From: Candidatus Saccharimonadota bacterium
GTDB lineage: Archaea > Micrarchaeota > Micrarchaeia > Micrarchaeales > Micrarchaeaceae
Assembly (NCBI RefSeq): GCF_002214165.1
Contig: NZ_CP019964.1
Span: 780,001 to 812,000 of the forward strand
Direction of reading: 5' to 3'
DNA: 32,000 nt
Below the pieces are notes generated by a model. The model made no database searches and was not told the origin of the DNA. It saw only the letters and a list, made by a program, of their open reading frames with translations. The stretch's first letter is position 1; every line of letters begins with the position of its first letter. This document shows, in pieces, positions 510 through 29,418 of this stretch. Made by a program: the position numbers and the translations under genes.

Positions 510-613
510 CGGGCCCGACGGGATTTTCATGTTTGCTTTTTAGGACAAACAATTTGAACCCGTGACCATCAGCTTAGAAGGCTGCCGCTCTATCCAAGCT
601 GAGCTACGGGCCC
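510..613 (-). tRNA. tRNA-Arg(UCU) with a 29-nt non-canonical intron in the T-loop
   Basis: The minus strand reads GGGCCCG-TA-GCTC-AGCTTGGATA-GAGC-G-GCAGC-CTTCTAA-GCTGA-TGGTC-ACGGG-TTCAAAT-[insert, plus coords 523..551]-CCCGT-CGGGCCC-G. The 7-bp acceptor stem and the D and T stems pair perfectly, and the anticodon loop is CU-UCU-AA. The anticodon stem has one G27:A43 mismatch. 75 nt remain after the insert is removed. The insert is flanked by a bulge-helix-bulge motif (see findings). Confidence 0.85.
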
Positions 614-2919: not shown

Positions 2920-3408
2920 GTGATAGCAATTAATTTCAAATCAAAGAGATTGAGAATTTTAAAGGATATATTTTCTAAACCTTTATACTTGGCAATTTTG
3001 GTAGTGGCAGGATTTTTGTATTACTTTCTTCTATATACTATAATAAAAATGAGCTCGTTTCATGGAATTATAATCCTGACTGCTCCTTTATACATGTTTT
3101 ACCTGCTAGTTGCCACTTCTGCAGTTTTAATTACAATAAGCATTTATGGCATAAGGAAGAGGATTGCGATTAAGGATGCTACTGCAGGAGGGGTTGTCAG
3201 TGTTGTCATGCCTTCTGTTGGGGGGTTGGTTGCAGGATGTGGATGCAGTGCACCTTTGCTGTCAAGCTTACTGATACCGGTTTTGGGTAGTATAGGCGCC
3301 GAAAGCTTTATAAGCTACTTATCAGCTTACAACATTTATATATTCGGGGTTTTAGTGTTGATAAATCTGATAATTATTTATTACCAGCTTAATTTGCTTT
3401 CAAAGTAA
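2920..3408 (+). CDS. Small polytopic membrane protein with an intramembrane GCGCSAP motif
   Basis: The 162-aa ORF has about 4 predicted TM segments. Its GTG start lies 2 nt after the stop of the upstream DUF929-like gene, suggesting translational coupling. The paired Cys residues followed by Pro sit inside a hydrophobic segment. Confidence 0.55.
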   Translation: MIAINFKSKRLRILKDIFSKPLYLAILVVAGFLYYFLLYTIIKMSSFHGIIILTAPLYMFYLLVATSAVLITISIYGIRKRIAIKDATAGGVVSVVMPSVGGLVAGCGCSAPLLSSLLIPVLGSIGAESFISYLSAYNIYIFGVLVLINLIIIYYQLNLLSK

Positions 3409-3527
3409 GCTATCTTAAACAACATGTTAAAATAGGTAAGTTTATAAAGGATTGCCTGACAATATTTAGTGAATTTTAAAATAGGCAATATTAGCCAACT
3501 CTATTGGATATTTGTTTCTGTGGTACT

Positions 3528-5285: not shown

Positions 5286-5547
5286 ATATTCACCTGTTTG
5301 AATGAATTAAACTTTTTAATAAACTATTTTGGTACTGTAAAGGCCTGCCATTTGTTTTAGGGCATTGCAATTACAGGTTTAAATACAAATAGTTACTTTT
5401 ATTACTAACTAAAAGTATAAATAAGTATCGCGTATTTGCTTATTTCGGTATCGTCTTGGATTACTCCTCATTCAATAGGCAGTATTTAAGGCTATCAGAA
5501 TTACTAACAATAATTAAATATTTAATCCTGTAAATTTAATTGATACC

Positions 5548-6614: not shown

Positions 6615-7703
6615 ATGCAGAATTACTCATTTCTGCCATTGCATGGGGGCAATGCCCCTAAATGGCTATTTGGACGGATGGTTAAGCTATCATCCTTAAT
6701 AGCAAATGAGATAATAGATGAATATGGAGCTGATGAATTTGTGAAAAGAGTTGCTGATCCTTATTGGTTCCAAGCTCTTGCATGTGCAGTTGGTTATGAT
6801 TGGCATAGCAGTGGAACGACAACTGTTACCATGGCAGCGCTAAAGCAAGCTCTTGACGGATATAGCGACATATATATAGCAGGAGGAAAAGGCAAAACAG
6901 GGTTAAAAACACCTGATGACATATTGAAGGGTGCAGACCTGTTATCCACCAATAATGCGGAACAACTTGTAAAATACAGCAGGATTACTGCAAAGATAGA
7001 CTCTTCGCTTATATATGATAATTTTGGCATATACCACCATACATTTGTGTTCTCCAAGGATAAGTGGAGCGTTGTACAGCAGGGAATGTTCAACAAAGGC
7101 AACACTGCAGTCAGGTTCCAGATATTCTGTGACAATATTGACAAAAACGATATATCCTGCGAGACAAACAGCGCAGTGGCTTCAGACCTATCTAACAATA
7201 CAGTGGATCTGACATTCAAGGACAATTCAGAAATAAAAGCCAAAAGCCTGGATATGGTAAATGACAATTTAAATGAGATAGTCAATTTTGGGAAAACTTA
7301 CAATCTCCCAGGCAGGCATGAGATAATCCCTTCGTGTGATTTAAGCAAGCAAGCAATAAAGCTTCTGGAGTATGCTAATGATATGAAGCCAGAAAATTAC
7401 AATGATCTTTTATCTATAAAGGGCATAGGTAGGAAAACATTGAAATCCGTTGCCCTGATATCATCTCTCATATACAAGAATGAGATTTATGAAAGGGATC
7501 CTGTTCTTTATTCTTACAATCTTGGTGGCAAGGATGGCATACCTTACAGGATAAATCTAAAAGATTATGATAATGTTATAAGTAGTATGAAGGAAATAAT
7601 AGACAATGCGAAGATTGGCCCACAAGATAGGGGCAAGGTATTGTCAAGGTTAAGCAAGGACTTGGAGGAAAAATATCTCAGGCTGAACAAGTTTGTTGGG
7701 TGA
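6615..7703 (+). CDS. DUF763-family protein with a helix-hairpin-helix element
   Basis: The N-terminal MQNYSFLPLHGGNAPKWLFGRMVKL matches the DUF763 start as I recall it. LSIKGIGRKTLKSVAL is HhH-like. The listed ORF starts at GTG 6606, and ATG 6615 is preferred. Confidence 0.7.
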   Translation: MQNYSFLPLHGGNAPKWLFGRMVKLSSLIANEIIDEYGADEFVKRVADPYWFQALACAVGYDWHSSGTTTVTMAALKQALDGYSDIYIAGGKGKTGLKTPDDILKGADLLSTNNAEQLVKYSRITAKIDSSLIYDNFGIYHHTFVFSKDKWSVVQQGMFNKGNTAVRFQIFCDNIDKNDISCETNSAVASDLSNNTVDLTFKDNSEIKAKSLDMVNDNLNEIVNFGKTYNLPGRHEIIPSCDLSKQAIKLLEYANDMKPENYNDLLSIKGIGRKTLKSVALISSLIYKNEIYERDPVLYSYNLGGKDGIPYRINLKDYDNVISSMKEIIDNAKIGPQDRGKVLSRLSKDLEEKYLRLNKFVG

Positions 7704-18693: not shown

Positions 18694-18766
18694 TAGCCCC
18701 GGTCGGATTCGAACCGGCGTATGCGGGTCCAAAGCCCGCAGTCCTTGGCCTCTAGACGACAGGGCT
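18694..18766 (-). tRNA. tRNA-Gln(UUG)
   Basis: The minus strand reads AGCCCTG-TC-GTCT-AGAGGCCAA-GGAC-T-GCGGG-CTTTGGA-CCCGC-ATAC-GCCGG-TTCGAAT-CCGAC-CGGGGCT-A, 73 nt in total. The 5' A is typical of archaeal tRNA-Gln. There is one C:A mismatch in the T-stem and one G:U pair in the acceptor stem. Confidence 0.85.
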
Positions 18767-22471: not shown

Positions 22472-23410
22472 TCAATAAAAAGATTCGATAGCTCTGTGGT
22501 ATGGGTTCTTTTTGTAAGTACCTTCTATTGGAATCTTACAGCCGCATTTCTTGCATCTGTTATCATTATCGAGATCCCACCTGGTTATCCCAAAGCCGTT
22601 CCTCCTTATAACTTCCTCTCCGCAGTTTGGGCAGTAAGTGCTTTCGTGTTCGTTTCCAGGAACGTTCCCTATGTATACGAACCTCAGCCCGTTCTTCTTC
22701 GCTATCTCATAATGCTCTTCCAAGCTCTTTAAGCTGGTATAAGGGTAATTGTACATCTTGTAATCCGGGTAGAACCTTGTAAACTGTATCGGCGTGTCCC
22801 TGCCAATGTTGCCTGCGATCCACTTTGTCAACGAATCTGCTGCCTCCAATGAGTCTCCGACTTTTGGGACTATCAAATCGGTTATCTCTATGTGTATACC
22901 AGCTTTACTCAAGTTTAACAAAGTCTCTTTTATGGGTTCTTCTTTTGGGACTGTTTCGTACTTGTTCATGAATTTCTGATCGCCATTTCCCTTAAAGTCA
23001 ACAACCACTGCATCTATCTTTCCCTTTATCGCTTCCACTGCCTCCTTTGTCATATAGCCATTGCTTACGAATACGGTAAACAATCCGTTCTTCTTGGCCA
23101 AATCGGCAACATCCAGCGCATATTCTATAAAGATGGTGGGCTCGTTATAAGTAAATGCAATACCGTCAACTTTGTTGGCAATTGCCATATCAACCAAGCT
23201 TTCGGGGCTTACATAATCCTGGTTTATCTCTTTTTCCTTGGATATCGCATGATTCTGGCAGAATGCACAATCAAAATTGCATGAATCTGTCCCGACTCCT
23301 AGCACCCAGCTGCCTGGCATGAAGTGGTTGAAGGGCTTCTTTTCTATAGGGTCTATCTGCATCGCTGATAAAGAATCAGGATACCAATAAGGCATACGCA
23401 GAGGTGTCAA
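22472..23410 (-). CDS. Radical SAM enzyme, AmmeMemoRadiSam / PflA-like family (N-terminus appears short)
   Basis: The product has DPIEKKPFNHFMPGS, then CNFDCAFCQNH (CxxxCxxC), and a C-terminal CPNCG...CKKCGC zinc ribbon. The start is TTG 23410 or ATG 23395, and an in-frame stop lies at 23429..23431. Confidence 0.8.
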   Translation of the reverse strand: MTPLRMPYWYPDSLSAMQIDPIEKKPFNHFMPGSWVLGVGTDSCNFDCAFCQNHAISKEKEINQDYVSPESLVDMAIANKVDGIAFTYNEPTIFIEYALDVADLAKKNGLFTVFVSNGYMTKEAVEAIKGKIDAVVVDFKGNGDQKFMNKYETVPKEEPIKETLLNLSKAGIHIEITDLIVPKVGDSLEAADSLTKWIAGNIGRDTPIQFTRFYPDYKMYNYPYTSLKSLEEHYEIAKKNGLRFVYIGNVPGNEHESTYCPNCGEEVIRRNGFGITRWDLDNDNRCKKCGCKIPIEGTYKKNPYHRAIESFY

Positions 23411-23595
23411 ATAATGACAACATACTTCTCAAAGGAATGAGCAAATCAACATTCTTTCAGAGCGTAAACTATTTACAGAACCTTGGATTAATCACCTTAA
23501 TAAAGAAAAAGATTGGCAGATACTATACAATGGAGTCGCAAATATTATTATCAGACGAATCAATAGTATCTGCGGAGCTAAGAAAAAGAATTTGA
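23404..23595 (+). CDS. Small winged-helix-like ORF or gene fragment at the island boundary
   Basis: STFFQSVNYLQNLGLITLIKKKIGRYY resembles a recognition helix plus wing. The GTG start overlaps the radical SAM start on the other strand, and ATG 23437 is an alternative start. It may be a remnant. Confidence 0.3.
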   Translation: MSNNDNILLKGMSKSTFFQSVNYLQNLGLITLIKKKIGRYYTMESQILLSDESIVSAELRKRI

Positions 23596-23621
23596 AAGAA
23601 ATAAGTTTTTATGATATAACA

Positions 23622-23629
23622 TTTATATA
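23622..23629 (+). promoter_or_regulatory. TATA-like box (TTTATATA) about 27 nt upstream of the GC-rich island
   Basis: The spacing fits archaeal TATA-to-start geometry if the island is transcribed from the plus strand. The flanks are AT-rich, so a chance match is possible. Confidence 0.3.
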
Positions 23630-23654
23630 AATAAATTTAAGAGTACATCCTAAA

Positions 23655-24105
23655 TTCCGCTTCGACTCAAATTCACCCCGACTTCGCTCCGCTCAGCCAC
23701 CCCTCTTTGAGCCTCCGCTATTTACTATGTGCCCTCCGCTCGCCTGCACGCCGAGCACAGGACCCCATGCTTCGCCTCCAATCAAAATTCACCCCGTCTT
23801 GCTTACGCAATCCACCCCTCTTTTGATTTACGGCTCGCACTCTTTCTCCGAAAGAGCCCCTCCTTTGCTACGCTCATCTGGGGTGGTGTCCTGTGCTCGC
23901 CGCTCGTGGTGTATGTGTGGTGCTACACACCATCGCTTCGCTTGGTGTTCCACACCACCCACCGCTGACGCTTACACCACTCGGTCCTGCTTCGCAGGAC
24001 TTCCGGCTCGCTTCGGGCACATTATTCTCTCCTGCGGAGTGCAATATAGGGGAGGGGGCTTAAGGGGATGCTTGACCGCACAATGTCGCTTCGCTTAGTG
24101 CGGAT
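23655..24105. ncRNA. GC-rich, hairpin-dense non-coding island; candidate novel structured RNA or ssDNA-active site (strand unresolved)
   Basis: GC content jumps sharply against AT-rich flanks. Five perfect hairpins, a 12-bp long-range inverted repeat and two paralogous stem-loops with compensatory closing pairs are present. The heptamer GCTTCGC occurs four times. Only implausible overlapping ORFs lie here. Details are in the findings. Confidence 0.45.
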
Positions 24106-24167
24106 AAATTGCTTATTTATCGATCATAAATTCTAAATATAAAAATCAAATATATGAAGGATGCTCA

Positions 24168-24341
24168 ATGGATAAGAAAGATGTTGAAAACTTGATGAAT
24201 GCGATTAAAATGACAGTGAACGTAGTTAAAAATGAATTTGATGTATTGGAGGGGATTGATAAAAAAGACCCAAAGAAAACACTTGACAGTATTAGCAAAG
24301 CCATAGATGATTTCTTAACCGATTTAAAGGGATTTAAATGA
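24168..24341 (+). CDS. Small acidic helical ORF (57 aa), hypothetical
   Basis: It reads ATG...TGA as MDKKDVENLMNAIKMTVNVVKNEFDVLEGIDKKDPKKTLDSISKAIDDFLTDLKGFK. It falls below the ORF-track cutoff and I have no homology knowledge. Confidence 0.3.
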   Translation: MDKKDVENLMNAIKMTVNVVKNEFDVLEGIDKKDPKKTLDSISKAIDDFLTDLKGFK

Positions 24342-24368
24342 ATCTTAAAATAGATTGGATATAATCTA

Positions 24369-24548
24369 TTATTTTCTTACGAATTTTACATTTACGTTTG
24401 GTACAAACCAAGAAGGAGTTCCCACGTCGATTTCATTTAGTTCAAATTTTCTTTGTCTGGTCTTCCTATCAACATTTTTAGTATATCCTCTTACGTATGT
24501 TCCATCTCTTCTTTTGTACGGCTTTACCCAAGCCTTATTAATCCACAT
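24369..24548 (-). CDS. Small basic ORF (59 aa), hypothetical nucleic-acid-binding protein
   Basis: The product is MWINKAWVKPYKRRDGTYVRGYTKNVDRKTRQRKFELNEIDVGTPSWFVPNVNVKFVRK. It lies antisense to the listed hydrophobic ORF 24355..24573 (TTG start). Which of the two, if either, is real cannot be decided here. Confidence 0.3.
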   Translation of the reverse strand: MWINKAWVKPYKRRDGTYVRGYTKNVDRKTRQRKFELNEIDVGTPSWFVPNVNVKFVRK

Positions 24549-24678
24549 TATAATATCATATCAAAATGATTAAAAACATTTTCTATTTTAGTATTCACTT
24601 AAAACATTAATCAAATCCCGACCGGTCCATTTAAACTATTAATCGAATACTTCTTATGCCATTACTCGTTATGCTATC

Positions 24679-25949
24679 ATGACCATTCAGCCCAAGTATC
24701 AGGATCTTCTTCTTGATGAGGATGTGCGGAGATGGTTTGAAAATTTAAGGGCAAAGTCAGTTTTGACTGCAACGGTGGCATTGAGAAACCTCGGTCATTA
24801 TTGCGAAATGACAGGAACAACGCCCAAGCAGATTCTCGAAAAGGCAAGGAAAAACGAGAAGGATTTCCGCTATGAATTTTCTGATTTTGTAAGGGAAATG
24901 GAGAGTAAAGGAAAAGCGGGCTCATACATTGCAAGGTTCAAGAAGGTTATTCTGTCATGGCTGAAGTTTAACGGTATCCGTTTACAGTTAGCCGTTAACA
25001 TATCCGGAGAGAACGAAACGCCGACGATAGCAAATGAGAGAGTGCCCAGCAAGGAAGAGCTTGCAAGAATATTGAGAAAAGCGACATCGCGAGGAAGGGT
25101 TATCATAGCATTAATGGCATTTTCAGGGCTAAGACCGGAATCGCTTGGAGATTACGAGGGCACTGATGGATTGCGATTGGGAGATTTAAAGGAGTTAAAA
25201 CTATCAGACGAGATACAGTTCGACAAGATCCCTGTTACTGTAATGGTGAAGAGCAAGCTTAGCAAGGCAAGGCATCAGTATTTCTCATTCATAGGTGAGG
25301 AGGGAGCAACATACATAAAGGAATACCTCGAAGAGAGGAGGAAACAGGGAGAGGAACTGACCTATGATTCGCCGCTGTTGCAGTTCGATGTCCGAGGAAT
25401 AAAGAAGAATGCATTCCTAAGGACAACGCTCGTTACAAGGGATGTCAGAGATGCAATATACGGGGCAGCGTATTAAGGGCGTATTTCTCAATGGCACTTG
25501 ACATAGCAGAGAGCAAGGGCTTAATATCGCATCCTTGGAGGCAGTTCATAATGGGGCACAAGGGCGATATCGAAGCCAGATACAGCACGAACAAGAGACT
25601 GCCTCCGGACATGATCGAGGAGATGCGCGAATCGTACAAGAAATGCTTAAAGTACCTCGAAACAAGGATAACAGAGCCATCGGAGATCGATGCAAAAATA
25701 TACCTACAACAGCAACTGCTTCTCGCAGTGGGCTACAAACAGGATGAAATCGATATGATGAACCTTGCTGAGATGGACAACGATGCATTCCAGAAACTTC
25801 TTCGCGACAAGGTTGCTGGCGCAATGTCAGGCAACGGCTCAAAGCAGAGGCTCGTGCCTGTAGATGAAATAGAAAAATTCCTCAGTCAAGGCTACGAGTT
25901 TCAGGCAGTTTTGCCCAACGGAAAGGCTATAATGAAAATGCCGTTTTAA
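24679..25949 (+). pseudogene. Tyrosine recombinase/integrase (archaeal integrase family), split by a frameshift
   Basis: ORF 24679..25476 has a SAM-like N-domain and box I (AFSGLRPESLGD). ORF 25491..25949 has box II (HPWRQFIMGHKGDIEARY). The conserved VLRAYFSMALDIAE segment is readable in frame 3 from 25461 (RGSVLRAYF...), while frame 1 ends ...RDAIYGAAY*. This implies a 1-nt indel around 25455-25465, next to a G4 run. Confidence 0.85.
25912..25942 (+). repeat. Direct repeat copy 1 (31 nt, inside the last codons of the integrase)
   Basis: TGCCCAACGGAAAGGCTATAATGAAAATGCC is identical to 27736..27766. Confidence 0.95.
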
Positions 25950-26002: not shown

Positions 26003-26878
26003 ATGGGTAGCCGTAAAAATGAATTAATAATGAGCGGAGCTGTGATAGTAAGCAAAGATGGAAACGTTTTGAAAACAAAGATTAATAACTACAAAACACC
26101 GATAAAAGTGTCACCAAAGATTCCAACCCCCAACGTTATCGCCAACAGTGGCTTGAAAAATATGTCTCTGATTTTCTCAGATAAGACACAGGGTTACCAC
26201 ATGGCATTCCGGGAAATGAATTATGACATCACAGAAAAGCAGGTAGTTCAGTCAGGAAAAGCATATTCATTATATTTTGAGATAACAGATGATGAAGACA
26301 CGACATATTTGGAAGGAAATATAATCCCTCTCGAAAGCAATAAAGGCGTTTTATTTTTATCGGTTAATGTTTCTCCCAAGAATCCAGAAAATGTTGACCT
26401 TTTTTCCCTTCCCATAGTCATTCGTTATAAAGGAAGCTTTCTGTCCATAATAAAAGACTTGAGTTCCATCATAAGTAATTTGAAAAAAGATGCGTCGACG
26501 AAACGAAACAGAATTTATGGAAAAATGGTGTCTCTTCTTGAAGCTTTTCCTGACATATATGCAAATAATCGAAATCGATTAGATATCATAAATAATCTAG
26601 AACTATCGTTCAAAGTTACCCTTATGGATTTTAATTTTACATGTTGTCTCGAAAATGCATTAAGTTTGACCGATTGTGTGCTTAGTGTTCCAGATATTGA
26701 AGAAATATGTGCTGAATGTTTGGTTTTACCCGATTGCTTGGCAGCTTGCTTTGACTTCCTAACACTCCCTGCATGTCTTGTCTGTTTTAGTCTTGATGTT
26801 CTTGCTTGCGCCTATTGTGTATATAAAGCAGGAGAATGCACTGAAGATGCAATAAAAGTGATTGACTGCTGCAAGTAA
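26003..26878 (+). CDS. Cassette 1 lead protein: Cys-free 213-aa N-domain plus a 78-aa hydrophobic C-terminal region with 14 Cys (candidate archaeocin precursor)
   Basis: The 291-aa product has no Cys in residues 1-213. Its Cys residues fall at 214, 215, 225, 236, 239, 245, 249, 258, 261, 269, 272, 279, 289 and 290 (nt 26642..26875). No N-terminal signal peptide is evident. Confidence 0.7.
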   Translation: MGSRKNELIMSGAVIVSKDGNVLKTKINNYKTPIKVSPKIPTPNVIANSGLKNMSLIFSDKTQGYHMAFREMNYDITEKQVVQSGKAYSLYFEITDDEDTTYLEGNIIPLESNKGVLFLSVNVSPKNPENVDLFSLPIVIRYKGSFLSIIKDLSSIISNLKKDASTKRNRIYGKMVSLLEAFPDIYANNRNRLDIINNLELSFKVTLMDFNFTCCLENALSLTDCVLSVPDIEEICAECLVLPDCLAACFDFLTLPACLVCFSLDVLACAYCVYKAGECTEDAIKVIDCCK

Positions 26879-26887
26879 AGTGACTTT

Positions 26888-27292
26888 ATGATTATAACCA
26901 GCAAGAGAAAGTTTTATGAATCCATACTTTCATATAGCATAGCTTGGATTTTCTTATATCTGTCAGTATTCCTATCACAGCACATAAAATATGATGGAAA
27001 CTTTACATCCGCAATACCTATATTATTTCCTCTGGTATTTGCCATGGTAGCCATAGGGGTCTCCATTTTGTTTATTCTTGGAAAGGAATATCCGTGGTTC
27101 TTTAGAACTGGAATTATGAGTCTTGCTATCGGAGTAACCCTATTCATTTTCGGGATAATAACGTATTATTCTGGTGTTGAATCTCTACTCTGGGGAGGGT
27201 CAGTAGGAATAGGCGTTTTGTTTGTAATTGCAGCAATTGTTAGATTAACTATACAAGGTGGCTTAAGTGCATACAGAAAAGCAAAGAATTAG
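26888..27292 (+). CDS. Small polytopic membrane protein (about 4 TM), cassette 1
   Basis: The 134-aa hydrophobic ORF starts 9 nt after the lead gene's stop. Confidence 0.6.
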   Translation: MIITSKRKFYESILSYSIAWIFLYLSVFLSQHIKYDGNFTSAIPILFPLVFAMVAIGVSILFILGKEYPWFFRTGIMSLAIGVTLFIFGIITYYSGVESLLWGGSVGIGVLFVIAAIVRLTIQGGLSAYRKAKN

Positions 27293-27494
27293 AGCAGTAT
27301 TTCTTTTGAGCTTTGGAACTGTATTTCTTATTTCAGGTATTGCGGGTCTATTATCGTTATCCATTTCCTATAACATTAAATCTTTTGGAACAGTAATTGC
27401 ATCGTTATCTGTTATTGCTGGAGCGTATTTTCTCCTCAATGCGTATTTTGTTTGGAACAACACAGCGACTAGAGGATTGGGAGAAGACACATGA
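27267..27494 (+). CDS. Small membrane protein (2 TM), cassette 1
   Basis: The 75-aa ORF has a GTG start that overlaps the previous ORF by 26 nt. Confidence 0.5.
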   Translation: MHTEKQRIRAVFLLSFGTVFLISGIAGLLSLSISYNIKSFGTVIASLSVIAGAYFLLNAYFVWNNTATRGLGEDT

Positions 27495-27700
27495 ATCCGT
27501 ACAGATATCACATCATCCTTGTGACCATTGTATCTTTTGTTGTTCTGATAATCAATATTATGGCTTATTTAGCAAAGGACGAGACCAATTATCTCTATCT
27601 TTTTGACATGGCTTATGTAGTTGGAAATAGTGCTCATTTTATAGCCTTATCCATCTCCTCAAATGGCATAAATATTGAAGATGAAAAGAAGGTAAAATAG
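27491..27700 (+). CDS. Small membrane protein (2 TM), cassette 1
   Basis: The 69-aa ORF shares an ATGA start/stop overlap with the previous ORF, indicating translational coupling. Confidence 0.5.
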   Translation: MNPYRYHIILVTIVSFVVLIINIMAYLAKDETNYLYLFDMAYVVGNSAHFIALSISSNGINIEDEKKVK

Positions 27701-27734: not shown

Positions 27735-27773
27735 CTGCCCAACGGAAAGGCTATAATGAAAATGCCTTTTTAG
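27735..27773 (+). pseudogene. Orphan integrase C-terminal remnant (13 codons, LPNGKAIMKMPF*) containing direct repeat copy 2 (27736..27766)
   Basis: CTG CCC AAC GGA AAG GCT ATA ATG AAA ATG CCT TTT TAG encodes the same peptide as 25911..25949. It differs only at synonymous positions (TTG/CTG, CCG/CCT) and in the stop codon (TAA/TAG). Confidence 0.85.
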
Positions 27774-27901: not shown

Positions 27902-27913
27902 TTTATATATAAT
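27902..27913 (+). promoter_or_regulatory. TATA-like box upstream of cassette 2
   Basis: TTTATATATAAT is centred about 24 nt upstream of ATG 27931. Confidence 0.35.
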
Positions 27914-27930
27914 ATTTTCATTCATAATTT

Positions 27931-28572
27931 ATGACCTGCAGTAATTGTTTTGATGCAAATGGTAGAAAAATAACAAGAATAAGTGTGCCACATAAGGAGG
28001 AATATACAGAGGGGAAACTAAAAATAACGGAAGGTGTGACAATTGTTCATTACAAAGAGGGCCCAGGGACGATCCTAAATTGGAAACAAATAATTGAGGG
28101 CAATACCTCCTCCATTGCAGACATAACTTATATTATACAATATAATGGTAAAAATATTACAAACAAGTTTAAAACCAAATACATTGACACAATAAATGGC
28201 AAGAAACTTGTTCACGTTGACGGAACTGGATTGGGCTCTAATGGGAAAGTAAACGTAACTAACAAGGATATTGCTCTTTCAAATGTAAAATCAGATCCAA
28301 ACGCCATTGAATGTCTTATTTGTCATGCTCTTGGAACCGTGCTTTGTACACTTCTTGCAGAGGGTGTATCAGAGGACTTAGCTTGTGAAGAGGCATCTGG
28401 CATCGTATGCTTAGAATTCATAGAGGATCCTATTGTTTATGTCGTTTGTTTTGGGGTTGTCGCATCAATTTGCGATGTTGTTCTACAAACAGTAATAGAT
28501 ATTGGTGTTCATGTTGCATGCGACCTTGGTGCAGACTACATATGCGAGAAGGCGATTGGATGTTCTTTATGA
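27931..28572 (+). CDS. Cassette 2 lead protein: beta-rich N-domain plus an 86-aa hydrophobic C-terminal region with 10 Cys (candidate halocin-C8-like precursor)
   Basis: The 213-aa product has the C-terminal spacing C128-x2-C-x7-C-x12-C-x7-C-x12-C-x7-C-x15-C-x7-C-x5-C211 (nt 28312..28569). A CxxC sits at residues 3-6. No signal peptide is evident. Confidence 0.7.
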   Translation: MTCSNCFDANGRKITRISVPHKEEYTEGKLKITEGVTIVHYKEGPGTILNWKQIIEGNTSSIADITYIIQYNGKNITNKFKTKYIDTINGKKLVHVDGTGLGSNGKVNVTNKDIALSNVKSDPNAIECLICHALGTVLCTLLAEGVSEDLACEEASGIVCLEFIEDPIVYVVCFGVVASICDVVLQTVIDIGVHVACDLGADYICEKAIGCSL

Positions 28573-28617
28573 AGGCTTAAATAAATATTCCTTCCTATAA
28601 TTTCAGGTGATAGGTAA

Positions 28618-29145
28618 ATGAGATATAGATTAATCTATTTAAGCATTGGCATTGCAATAATGGTCATTGACATATTACTTGCTCTCAAGTATCCAAAAAT
28701 ATTGATCTATAGCCTATGGGGTTCCTTCCTAGGTTTCTTCATTCCTTTTGGTATAGGATTTTCGACCCTACTCTACGGAGCATTTAAGGCCAAGGATTAT
28801 GGGATAAATCCGGTAATTGGAACAATAGGCTCAGGAGGCTTCACCAGAGTGATTAGGCAGAACAGGATTCAGGGCACAAGAACTTGGAAGACTGACCATG
28901 ATATACTTTCTGAACTTCCTGGGGCCCTAAAATCCCCTGACGGGAAAACAGTTGAATACAGCAGTTTGTTCATAAGAAAGCCCTATGGATCAACAAAATA
29001 CACGAAAAGACTAAACGAAGCGGCCAATAAGTATATTGCAGGGGAAATAGATGAGGAAGGATTTTATAACTATGTCGGAAAGCGTGGACCCAAGGAGGAA
29101 CAGATGCTTGAATTTATCAAAAAATTCAAGAATGATTATAGGTGA
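28618..29145 (+). CDS. Membrane protein (2 N-terminal TM plus a ~100-aa soluble domain), cassette 2
   Basis: The 175-aa ORF has normal composition, and I recognise no family. Confidence 0.6.
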   Translation: MRYRLIYLSIGIAIMVIDILLALKYPKILIYSLWGSFLGFFIPFGIGFSTLLYGAFKAKDYGINPVIGTIGSGGFTRVIRQNRIQGTRTWKTDHDILSELPGALKSPDGKTVEYSSLFIRKPYGSTKYTKRLNEAANKYIAGEIDEEGFYNYVGKRGPKEEQMLEFIKKFKNDYR

Positions 29146-29157
29146 GGTGATGACAAA

Positions 29158-29418
29158 ATGGTTAAATTTCATCCTATAAACAAAACAATGACTGTTGGAA
29201 CCTTTATGTTCATAGGTTCCATGATAATAATCGCACTGGGAGCTTTGTTTCATTACCTGCACTACTCTGCTTCAATTTACCTTTCATTCTTCTTTTATGG
29301 TCTAGGAATATTCTTCCTTTCAGCGATAATATTGTTCATCGGAACTCTGCTGGCAGCAAAAAGTGGCAAGTTGCAGAAAAGGGCAAGCGACATTTTCAAC
29401 AATAGAAAATCGAAATAA
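29158..29418 (+). CDS. Small membrane protein (2-3 TM), cassette 2
   Basis: The 86-aa hydrophobic ORF starts 12 nt after the previous stop. Confidence 0.55.
   Translation: MVKFHPINKTMTVGTFMFIGSMIIIALGALFHYLHYSASIYLSFFFYGLGIFFLSAIILFIGTLLAAKSGKLQKRASDIFNNRKSK

Follow-up and report, generated by a model that had tools for sequence, protein, structure and literature searches.

The 32,000-nucleotide stretch of DNA analyzed here (positions 780,001 to 812,000 of contig NZ_CP019964.1; hereafter the window) comes from a Mancarchaeum-type DPANN genome (corresponding to MAG GCA_027353625.1): its prolyl-tRNA synthetase falls in one 90% cluster with that of Candidatus Mancarchaeum acidiphilum Mia14, and the 213-, 175-, 86-, and 291-aa proteins described below are identical to Mia14 proteins. 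The genes examined lie in a 36.5-kb genomic island inserted into a radical-SAM gene (Golyshina et al. 2017, PMC5498576). Within that island, a cluster of three plus-strand genes, designated cassette 2, begins with the gene for a cysteine-rich precursor of 213 amino acids (aa), which is annotated in the Mia14 island as a "putative metal-binding protein". We read the cassette 2 operon as encoding a membrane-attacking toxin together with self-protection genes, carried on an element that moves between DPANN and Thermoplasmatales hosts.

Organization of cassette 2

The precursor gene occupies positions 27931 to 28572 (+ strand), and its open reading frame (ORF), which cannot be extended upstream, translates to ASI14144.1 of Ca. 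Mancarchaeum acidiphilum. Cysteines were found at residues 3, 6, 128, 131, 139, 152, 160, 173, 181, 197, 205, and 211. Ten of them fall in the C-terminal 86 residues, spaced as CxxC-x7-C-x12-C-x7-C-x12-C-x7-C-x15-C-x7-C-x5-C, and the protein ends in ...VACDLGADYICEKAIGCSL. The same number, spacing, and ending had been given in an initial annotation of this DNA, with which the translation agrees exactly; the extra N-terminal pair, C3xxC6, went unmentioned there, and this CxxC is not kept in P0005 or more distant members of the family (homologous proteins are given P numbers, and loci from other genomes L numbers).

Directly behind the precursor gene lie genes for a 175-aa protein (28618 to 29145, + strand; ASI14145.1, annotated as "membrane protein"), which has two transmembrane helices at its N-terminus and ~110 aa of soluble domain, and for an 86-aa two-helix membrane protein (29158 to 29418, + strand; ASI14146), homologues of which follow divergent precursors. 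A GGTGA motif is found close upstream of each of these two genes, marking the 175-aa gene as internal to an operon, and the first gene has a TATA-like box instead. This box, TTTATATATA, was read from the sequence at 27902 to 27911 (+ strand), -29 to -20 relative to the precursor ATG, a position that implies a probably leaderless or near-leaderless precursor transcript. The three genes appear to have the layout of an operon with a leaderless first gene. In cassette 1, the neighboring upstream cluster, the TATA run ends at -18 of the ATG, so that the two cassettes do have the common TATA-to-ATG geometry proposed for them initially. Also upheld was the proposal that the 175- and 86-aa membrane proteins are unrelated to those of cassette 1, as BLASTP detected no similarity at E≤1. 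The 175-aa protein had no family match in scans of Pfam, an NCBIfam-type library, and PHROGs, and a Pfam scan of all cassette proteins gave nothing above threshold.

Conservation of the precursor family

The precursor belongs to a very small family, with 15 representatives among 1.84 billion sequences covered by word-index and exhaustive hidden Markov model searches. Homologues P0001 to P0005 are 55 to 95% identical to the 213-aa protein. Homologues are 203 to 213 aa long, so that a fragment of a larger surface protein, an outcome that would have undone the initial interpretation, can be discounted. The ten C-terminal cysteines, whose conservation in homologues had also been left to be checked, are invariant in the 10 to 13 members aligned, down to 27% identity, and are the sole invariant residues; the pattern is therefore not due to chance.

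The two parts of the precursor evolve at very different rates. Between the window and Cuniculiplasma divulgatum, the C-terminal domain differs by 2 nonsynonymous and 36 synonymous substitutions, a ratio of nonsynonymous to synonymous rates (dN/dS) of about 0.01, whereas the N-terminal domain (residues 1 to 123) has a dN of 0.156 and changes ~15-fold faster. The C-terminal domain is under very strong purifying selection and is nearly frozen. Cassettes 1 and 2 had been described as loci of a diversifying kind, and this part of the description must be abandoned for the toxin domain.

Relationship to halocin C8

To our knowledge, halocin C8 (HalC8) is among very few archaeal protein toxins whose gene is known, and neither its structure nor the way it acts has been solved. 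The model of the corresponding NCBIfam domain, TIGR04449 (halocin_C8_dom; curated cut-off, 24 bits), was aligned over its entire length (positions 1 to 69 of 69) with residues 128 to 211 of the window protein (20.7 bits; E=6.2e-4). Of ten family members compared with the model, nine were matched end to end, three of them above the cut-off: P0056 (43.0 bits), P0063 (36.2 bits), and P0062 (25.8 bits). The profile of the window family (A1) in turn matched P0056 at E=6e-22. Of eight shuffles with the cysteines held fixed, none matched TIGR04449, and the score therefore does not merely reflect cysteine spacing or composition. These comparisons identify the 213-aa protein as a probable divergent, sub-threshold relative of the NCBIfam family, tied to it through relatives that pass the model; its membership of TIGR04449 would be by transitive homology only.

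The HalC8-like proteins of Haloferax and Halobacterium plasmids have a Tat (twin-arginine translocation) signal, an N-terminal part of ~200 aa, a small membrane-protein gene downstream, and the pattern CxxC-x7-C-x3-C-x7-C-x12/13-C-x7-C-x8-C-x8-C-x6/7-C. The start CxxC-x7-C, which the initial annotation had given for halocin C8, is indeed present in these proteins, and their end is C-x8-C-x5..7-C. The window domain has ten cysteines in the same order, the same start, a C-x5..7-C end, and the same place at the C-terminus of a precursor. Aligned cysteine for cysteine with the haloarchaeal domain, it is longer by +9 and +7 residues in two of the nine spacings; six others agree exactly or to within one residue, and the last, 12 versus 12 to 13, is inside the haloarchaeal range.

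According to Sun et al. 2005 (as cited in bioRxiv 10.64898/2026.07.27.741052), the halocin precursor ProC8 has the immunity protein HalI as its N-terminal part, and its last 76 aa are the toxin. ProC8 of Natrinema sp. AS7092 and the TIGR04449 family likewise place a hydrophobic ten-cysteine domain at the end of a precursor of 200 to 300 aa; the family shares with the window domain the cysteine order, the CxxC-x7-C start, three successive C-x7-C units, and the C-x5-C end, and the genes of HalC8-like proteins are directly followed by a small membrane-protein gene, as in cassette 2. The differences are also considerable. The window cysteine domain has 84 aa versus about 70 aa in the TIGR04449 family. 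Unlike ProC8, the window protein lacks a Tat signal, its N-terminal domain is a predicted beta meander without PF22862 (Hac8_like_N, HalI), and its gene travels as a cassette on an integrative element. The hosts of the window family are extreme acidophiles and a DPANN archaeon, whereas those of HalC8 are halophiles.

Neither a Tat nor a Sec (general secretory) signal was recognized in the window protein, whose N-terminus, MTCSNCFDANGRKITRISVPHKEEY, is hydrophilic and is followed by no hydrophobic segment before residue 124. PF22862 was absent from 13 of 13 family members at E≤10, and hhalign comparison of the N-terminal domains of the window and haloarchaeal families gave nothing; the Haloferax homologues (at least 6 among the matches listed) all carry PF22862. 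The link to halocin C8 appears real but remote. The echo of halocin C8 heard in the initial annotation is borne out by the full-length TIGR04449 match, but that match lies below the cut-off and direct alignment was insignificant, as detailed below.

A predicted saposin fold

Searching the family profile against all PDB sequences returned saposins only, a relationship newly recognized here that the initial annotation had missed. The profile of the C-terminal domain (A8) scored 25.9 bits (E=9.2e-5) against saposin A; with saposin C, a whole-domain alignment was obtained (profile positions 4 to 88; E 0.07 to 0.19). In the saposin A alignment, C128, C131, C160, and C173 pair with saposin cysteines 1 to 4. 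The full-length span of the saposin C alignment and the common C-x5-C ending suggest that C205 and C211 map to saposin cysteines 5 and 6. Six of the ten cysteines are therefore assigned, at the level of sequence comparison, to canonical saposin positions, and the remaining four probably form two further disulfides. A pairing in twin Cx7C hairpins (C131-C160, C139-C152, etc.) was dropped for the saposin-type pairing after the saposin alignment. By analogy with the saposin pairs 1-6, 2-5, and 3-4, the disulfides predicted are C128-C211, C131-C205, and C160-C173, with C139-C152 and C181-C197 as the extra two. Profiles whose columns were shuffled within the inter-cysteine segments did not find saposin (0 of 2). 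With P0056 alone as query, saposin A made up the top five PDB matches, none of them significant.

The C-terminal domain, residues 124 to 213 (28300 to 28569, + strand), was then modeled from the family alignment with AlphaFold2. The model (predicted local distance difference test score [pLDDT] 88.5) has five helices of 16 to 25 residues joined by tight turns in a compact bundle. Compared with PDB structures by Foldseek, it resembled human saposin A (2dob) with template-modeling (TM) scores of 0.72 and 0.81, normalized to query and target, respectively, and a root-mean-square deviation (rmsd) of 2.4 Å over 89 columns. A second saposin A structure (4uex) gave TM-scores of 0.66 and 0.75 (rmsd 2.5 Å), NK-lysin 0.50 and 0.57 (rmsd 4.1 Å), and the saposin domain of acid sphingomyelinase 0.49 and 0.12 (rmsd 4.4 Å). 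On the evidence of TIGR04449, the PDB profile search, Foldseek, and dN/dS, we describe residues 124 to 213 as a predicted saposin-fold, divergent halocin C8-like domain. The profile of classical HalC8 had no match in the PDB, so that the saposin link holds for the acidophile subfamily only. We found no paper tying halocins to the saposin fold in the literature covered; this did not include the main survey of HalC8 homologues, which may list the subfamily.

Saposin-like proteins (SAPLIPs), which include saposins A to D, NK-lysin/granulysin, amoebapores, surfactant protein B, and plant-specific inserts, have the fold predicted here, and saposins A and C are also matched by the family sequence profile. 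Saposins themselves are acidic, have their membrane activity at low pH, and are cut from a larger precursor, and plant-specific inserts are likewise active at acidic pH. Unlike SAPLIPs, the window domain is from a prokaryotic host, has four extra cysteines, and is much more hydrophobic; its precursor holds a single domain of the kind and lacks a signal peptide.

Membrane partners and decay of the cysteine domain

Homologues of the 86-aa protein are encoded directly after P0056 (L016, 55% identity) and P0063 (L028, 39%, E=2e-11), two precursors that are just 27 to 30% identical. Other divergent precursors (P0054, P0057, P0059, and P0062) are encoded next to other small membrane proteins, and P0059 carries a Sec-type signal. 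The 86-aa protein is the most consistently linked partner and, by this linkage, the best candidate for an immunity protein. At the P0062 locus (L030, 3004-3384 and 3807-4379), a second precursor, of 190 aa, shares the leader-like N-region of P0062 (…GLSKLV.KQLQEYD.EIL…) and ends in a different cysteine-rich domain, a modular design like that of polymorphic toxins.

Several copies have independently lost the cysteine domain. In Acidiplasma aeolicum (L026, 3379-3768), it is deleted after residue 130, and in I-plasma (L027, 1154-1340), an internal deletion leaves residues 1 to 41 and 193 to 213; in both, the 175- and 86-aa genes are intact. Copies in Ferroplasma and elsewhere (P0013 and P0016) are truncated such that the N-terminal domain is kept and the cysteine domain is gone. 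In the C. divulgatum element (L007, 15687-16421), a homologue of the 86-aa protein (51% identity) lies beside one of the 134-aa membrane protein of cassette 1 (40%), and no precursor gene is present; the pair looks like orphan genes of an immunity type. Tight linkage, decay of the toxin with its partners kept, orphans, and the shuffling of cassettes described below together make up what appears to be a toxin/immunity pattern of the bacteriocin type.

Among bacteriocins, the leaderless aureocin A53 and lacticin Q and the circular AS-48 are compact, membrane-active, saposin-like helical bundles encoded beside small multi-pass immunity proteins. Such leaderless or circular bacteriocins are cationic, 40 to 70 aa long, and without disulfides, usually have ATP-binding cassette (ABC) exporters, and in some cases have no leader peptide. 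Unlike the leaderless bacteriocins, the window system has a 213-aa precursor, an acidic domain with five putative disulfides, and no transporter.

Cassettes as interchangeable modules

Cassette 1 (26003 to 27700, + strand) comprises genes for a 291-aa precursor with 14 cysteines, for membrane proteins of 134 and 75 aa, and for a 69-aa protein at its end. The 291-aa protein is ASI14140, and its 14-cysteine C-terminus is nearly invariant; it matched neither TIGR04449 nor the PDB. The initial annotation had called for an alignment of this C-terminus with the cassette 2 domain, and the two proved unrelated: hhalign gave a probability of 0.14% between the families, and BLASTP found nothing. The cassettes are nonetheless analogous, each with a variable N-terminal part, a frozen, cysteine-rich, hydrophobic tail, and membrane-protein genes behind it.

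A tblastn map of related loci revealed a conserved unit in which the integrase gene is followed by the 213-, 175-, 86-, and 69/70-aa genes and by a short sequence that repeats the 3' end of the integrase gene. A search for further loci relied on N-domain patterns and so covered close relatives only. The 69/70-aa single-helix protein (…YLYLFDMAYVVGNSAHFIALSISSNGI.IEDEKKVK) closes every cassette unit, whichever precursor it holds (window 27491-27700; L007 11679-11879; L016 982-1194). It had been counted as a part of cassette 1 and is instead a shared cassette-end gene, present in the window after cassette 1 and not after cassette 2. The repeat was defined by a blastn self-match of 37 bp at 97% identity. 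Its first copy (25912 to 25948, + strand) covers the last codons of the integrase gene and its second (27736 to 27772, + strand; core TGCCCAACGGAAAGGCTATAATGAAAATGCC) the boundary of cassettes 1 and 2, such that the two bracket cassette 1; further copies were aligned from L007 and L023.

The modules occur alone, combined, and in tandem. In C. divulgatum, cassette 2 is found alone, straight after an intact 429-aa integrase. In a Thermoplasmata metagenome-assembled genome (MAG; L023), the whole 213-175-86-69 unit occurs as a tandem duplication (period, 1992 bp), and the repeat lies at 3390-3520, 5366-5496, and 7358-7488; another contig of the same MAG (L024) holds both cassettes. Such shuffling, with the 37-bp repeat at the module boundaries, is in line with the cassette swapping that had been suggested as a thing to look for. 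Of the earlier picture of two non-identical toxin/immunity cassettes in tandem, the cassettes stand as real modules and the diversification does not, the toxin domain being conserved. The 37-bp repeat could be an integron-like site of cassette recombination or a mere substrate for unequal crossing-over.

A proposed self-masked membrane toxin

The full-length AlphaFold2 model (pLDDT 82.7; predicted TM-score [pTM] 0.79) consists of a beta meander followed by the helical bundle. The N-terminal domain, residues 1 to 121 (27931 to 28293, + strand), is predicted to be a basic, seven-stranded antiparallel beta meander, with strands between residues 14 and 115. It had no Pfam match; Foldseek with the full-length model gave nothing significant, only weak look-alikes among lipid-binding beta barrels, and the viral structures of BFVD gave no match. 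The charge is split between the domains: residues 1 to 123 contain 17 Lys and Arg versus 12 Asp and Glu, and residues 120 to 213 contain 15 Asp and Glu versus 2 Lys and Arg, the C-terminal domain being 57% hydrophobic. The linker contains Asp122-Pro123 (28294 to 28299, + strand), which lies six residues short of the domain's first cysteine and is a candidate acid-labile processing site. Asp-Pro is found 5 to 6 residues ahead of the first cysteine in 6 of the 11 rows of the C-domain alignment, in five divergent lineages. The Asp-Pro bond is chemically acid-labile.

The above considerations lead us to favor, with moderate confidence, a mobile-element-borne, saposin-fold, halocin C8-like membrane toxin that is synthesized in the form of a self-masking precursor and against which the small membrane proteins give protection. 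The charge split, the pTM 0.79 model, and the linker Asp-Pro suggest how it might act. In the near-neutral cytoplasm, the basic beta domain would mask the acidic, hydrophobic domain and keep it soluble. Outside, at a pH of about 1, the 15 carboxylates of the C-terminal domain would be protonated and the domains would part, and acid cleavage at Asp122-Pro123 could give self-processing of the precursor. The freed saposin-like domain would insert into the membranes of neighbors, and carriers of the element would be shielded by their small membrane proteins.

Several results weigh against this proposal. The window protein, at 20.7 bits, is under the TIGR04449 cut-off, and comparisons with classical HalC8 by hmmsearch, phmmer, and hhalign, in both directions, gave at most 9 bits and a probability of at most 4.5%. 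The classical sequences compared were Haloferax, Halobacterium, and Natrinema profiles, shallow ones of 3 to 8 sequences, and single sequences; since these direct comparisons were insignificant, we make no claim of demonstrated homology to HalC8 itself. The window sequence alone matched nothing in the PDB, and Pfam SapB_1 and SapB_2 matched none of 13 members at E≤10, so that the similarity to saposins is seen at the profile level only; the Foldseek E-values were weak (0.33) despite the high TM-scores. The C-terminal domain is frozen, while many interference toxins diversify. Finally, the precursor has no signal peptide or other recognizable export signal, and there is no transporter gene within the cassette.

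Because an export signal is absent, two other readings stay alive. The cassette might be an addiction (postsegregational killing) or exclusion module, in which the domain attacks the producer's membrane from inside unless the membrane proteins neutralize it; the element would thereby be stabilized, and no export is needed. A precursor without a signal peptide would suit this, as would the tight linkage of toxin and membrane partners and the setting of the operon, which adjoins the integrase gene on an integrative element with genes for ParE, restriction-modification, and ParA as well. We nevertheless consider it unlikely, as the ten invariant cysteines of the saposin framework imply disulfides, bonds usually seen in proteins outside the cytoplasm; a Sec-type signal is present in P0059 and Tat signals in the classical HalC8-like proteins; and toxin-less copies that keep the partner genes better suit orphan immunity to an external toxin.

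The protein could otherwise be a non-toxic factor for lipid handling or membrane fusion, which, in the manner of saposins, would extract or pass on lipids or bring membranes into contact at low pH. It might then help the DPANN symbiont to take up lipids or the element to pass from one wall-less cell to another. The predicted saposin fold and the sequence similarity behind it are in keeping with such a role, as is a recent transfer between phyla, seen as 99.9% identity of the element (an exchange between Mia14 and Cuniculiplasma was described in PMC5498576). This too strikes us as improbable, given the link to the halocin C8 family, the repeated decay of the cysteine domain with partner genes kept, the second, unrelated cysteine-rich precursor cassette alongside, and a tandem duplication and shuffling of cassettes that is typical of conflict loci.

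A third possibility, that the protein is an integral membrane protein of the element whose C-terminal helices are anchors and which has no antagonistic role, fits the hydropathy windows of ≥1.6 over residues 124 to 147 and 157 to 195. It is very unlikely in view of the 15 acidic residues in the same region, the compact saposin-like bundle predicted, and ten invariant cysteines in a domain homologous to a secreted toxin domain. Least credible of all is the metal-binding role assigned by the public Mia14 and C. divulgatum annotations: 12 cysteines with two CxxC motifs, a metal-rich habitat, and a copper ATPase in the island speak for it, but the cysteines lie one or two per hydrophobic helix at saposin disulfide positions, no metal-binding family was matched, and the N-terminal CxxC is not conserved.

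On the self-masked toxin reading, the locus extends the halocin C8-like family to wall-less extreme acidophiles and a DPANN symbiont, and the "metal-binding protein" of the published Mia14 island is re-annotated. The saposin fold, if true, accounts for membrane activity and suggests an acid-triggered mechanism; it also hints at archaeal relatives of a cysteine-framework domain usually held to be eukaryotic. An element nearly unchanged between symbiont and host that carries interchangeable cassettes of a toxin type bears on the stability of the consortium. As a broader and doubtful conjecture, we mention that the whole halocin C8-like family may be a prokaryotic, disulfide-stapled branch of saposin-like proteins, homologous rather than just analogous to saposins, NK-lysin, and amoebapores; the acidophile subfamily would be triggered by acid, through protonation and possibly Asp-Pro self-cleavage at a pH of about 1, and perhaps polices the symbiont's hosts.

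The mobile element and its surroundings

The left end of the element and its tyrosine-recombinase gene (24611 to 25949, + strand) were located by the blastn boundary between L001 and L003 (L001 6681) and by XerA-type and phage-integrase matches. From 24611 to the end of the window, a Thermoplasmatota MAG (L003) shares the element at 99.9% identity and has it at a different chromosomal site; this identity across phyla points to a very recent exchange between the lineages of symbiont and host. Identity is 98.8% for the copy of a Cuniculiplasma sp. (MAG L005) and about 76% for the version in C. divulgatum (L007). The hosts of the element inhabit acid mine drainage. As the integrase alone was matched in PHROGs, there is no evidence for a virus. 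An archaeal toxin borne on a mobile element is described for the SSV9 virus of Sulfolobus (PMC8628083). By analogy, a toxin on an integrating or chronic element would favor carriers over element-free relatives; the SSV9 toxin and the window precursor are unrelated proteins on elements of different types.

The integrase gene is split into pieces of 265 aa (24679-25476) and 152 aa (25491-25949) in different frames; compared with C. divulgatum, where a single ORF of 429 aa is found, the junction is ~20 nt shorter. All six window-type copies have the split, yet they occupy at least two chromosomal sites and belong to different phyla. The split integrase may still function, as two pieces or through frameshifting; otherwise, the element is moved in trans.

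To the left of the element is the truncated radical-SAM gene (AmmeMemoRadiSam-type; 22472-23410, - strand), whose product is identical to the Mia14 protein and has 307 aa versus 351 aa in insertion-free genomes. The 1.2 kb between this gene and the element (23411-24610) hold debris resembling the 3' end of an AAA gene in the element of C. divulgatum. The G+C content of 23000-24000 is 0.448 versus about 0.38 elsewhere, and Rfam had no match there. Elsewhere in the window, Rfam identified tRNA genes at 555-613 (- strand; 32.3 bits) and 18694-18766 (- strand; 51.7 bits), of which ARAGORN found only the latter, as tRNA-Gln; the 59-nt match at 555-613 may be partial or intron-containing. Just outside the island, a gene for an AbiEii-type toxin (PF08843; 19011-19517, - strand) lies amid housekeeping genes, including those for alanyl- and prolyl-tRNA synthetases (AlaRS and ProRS).

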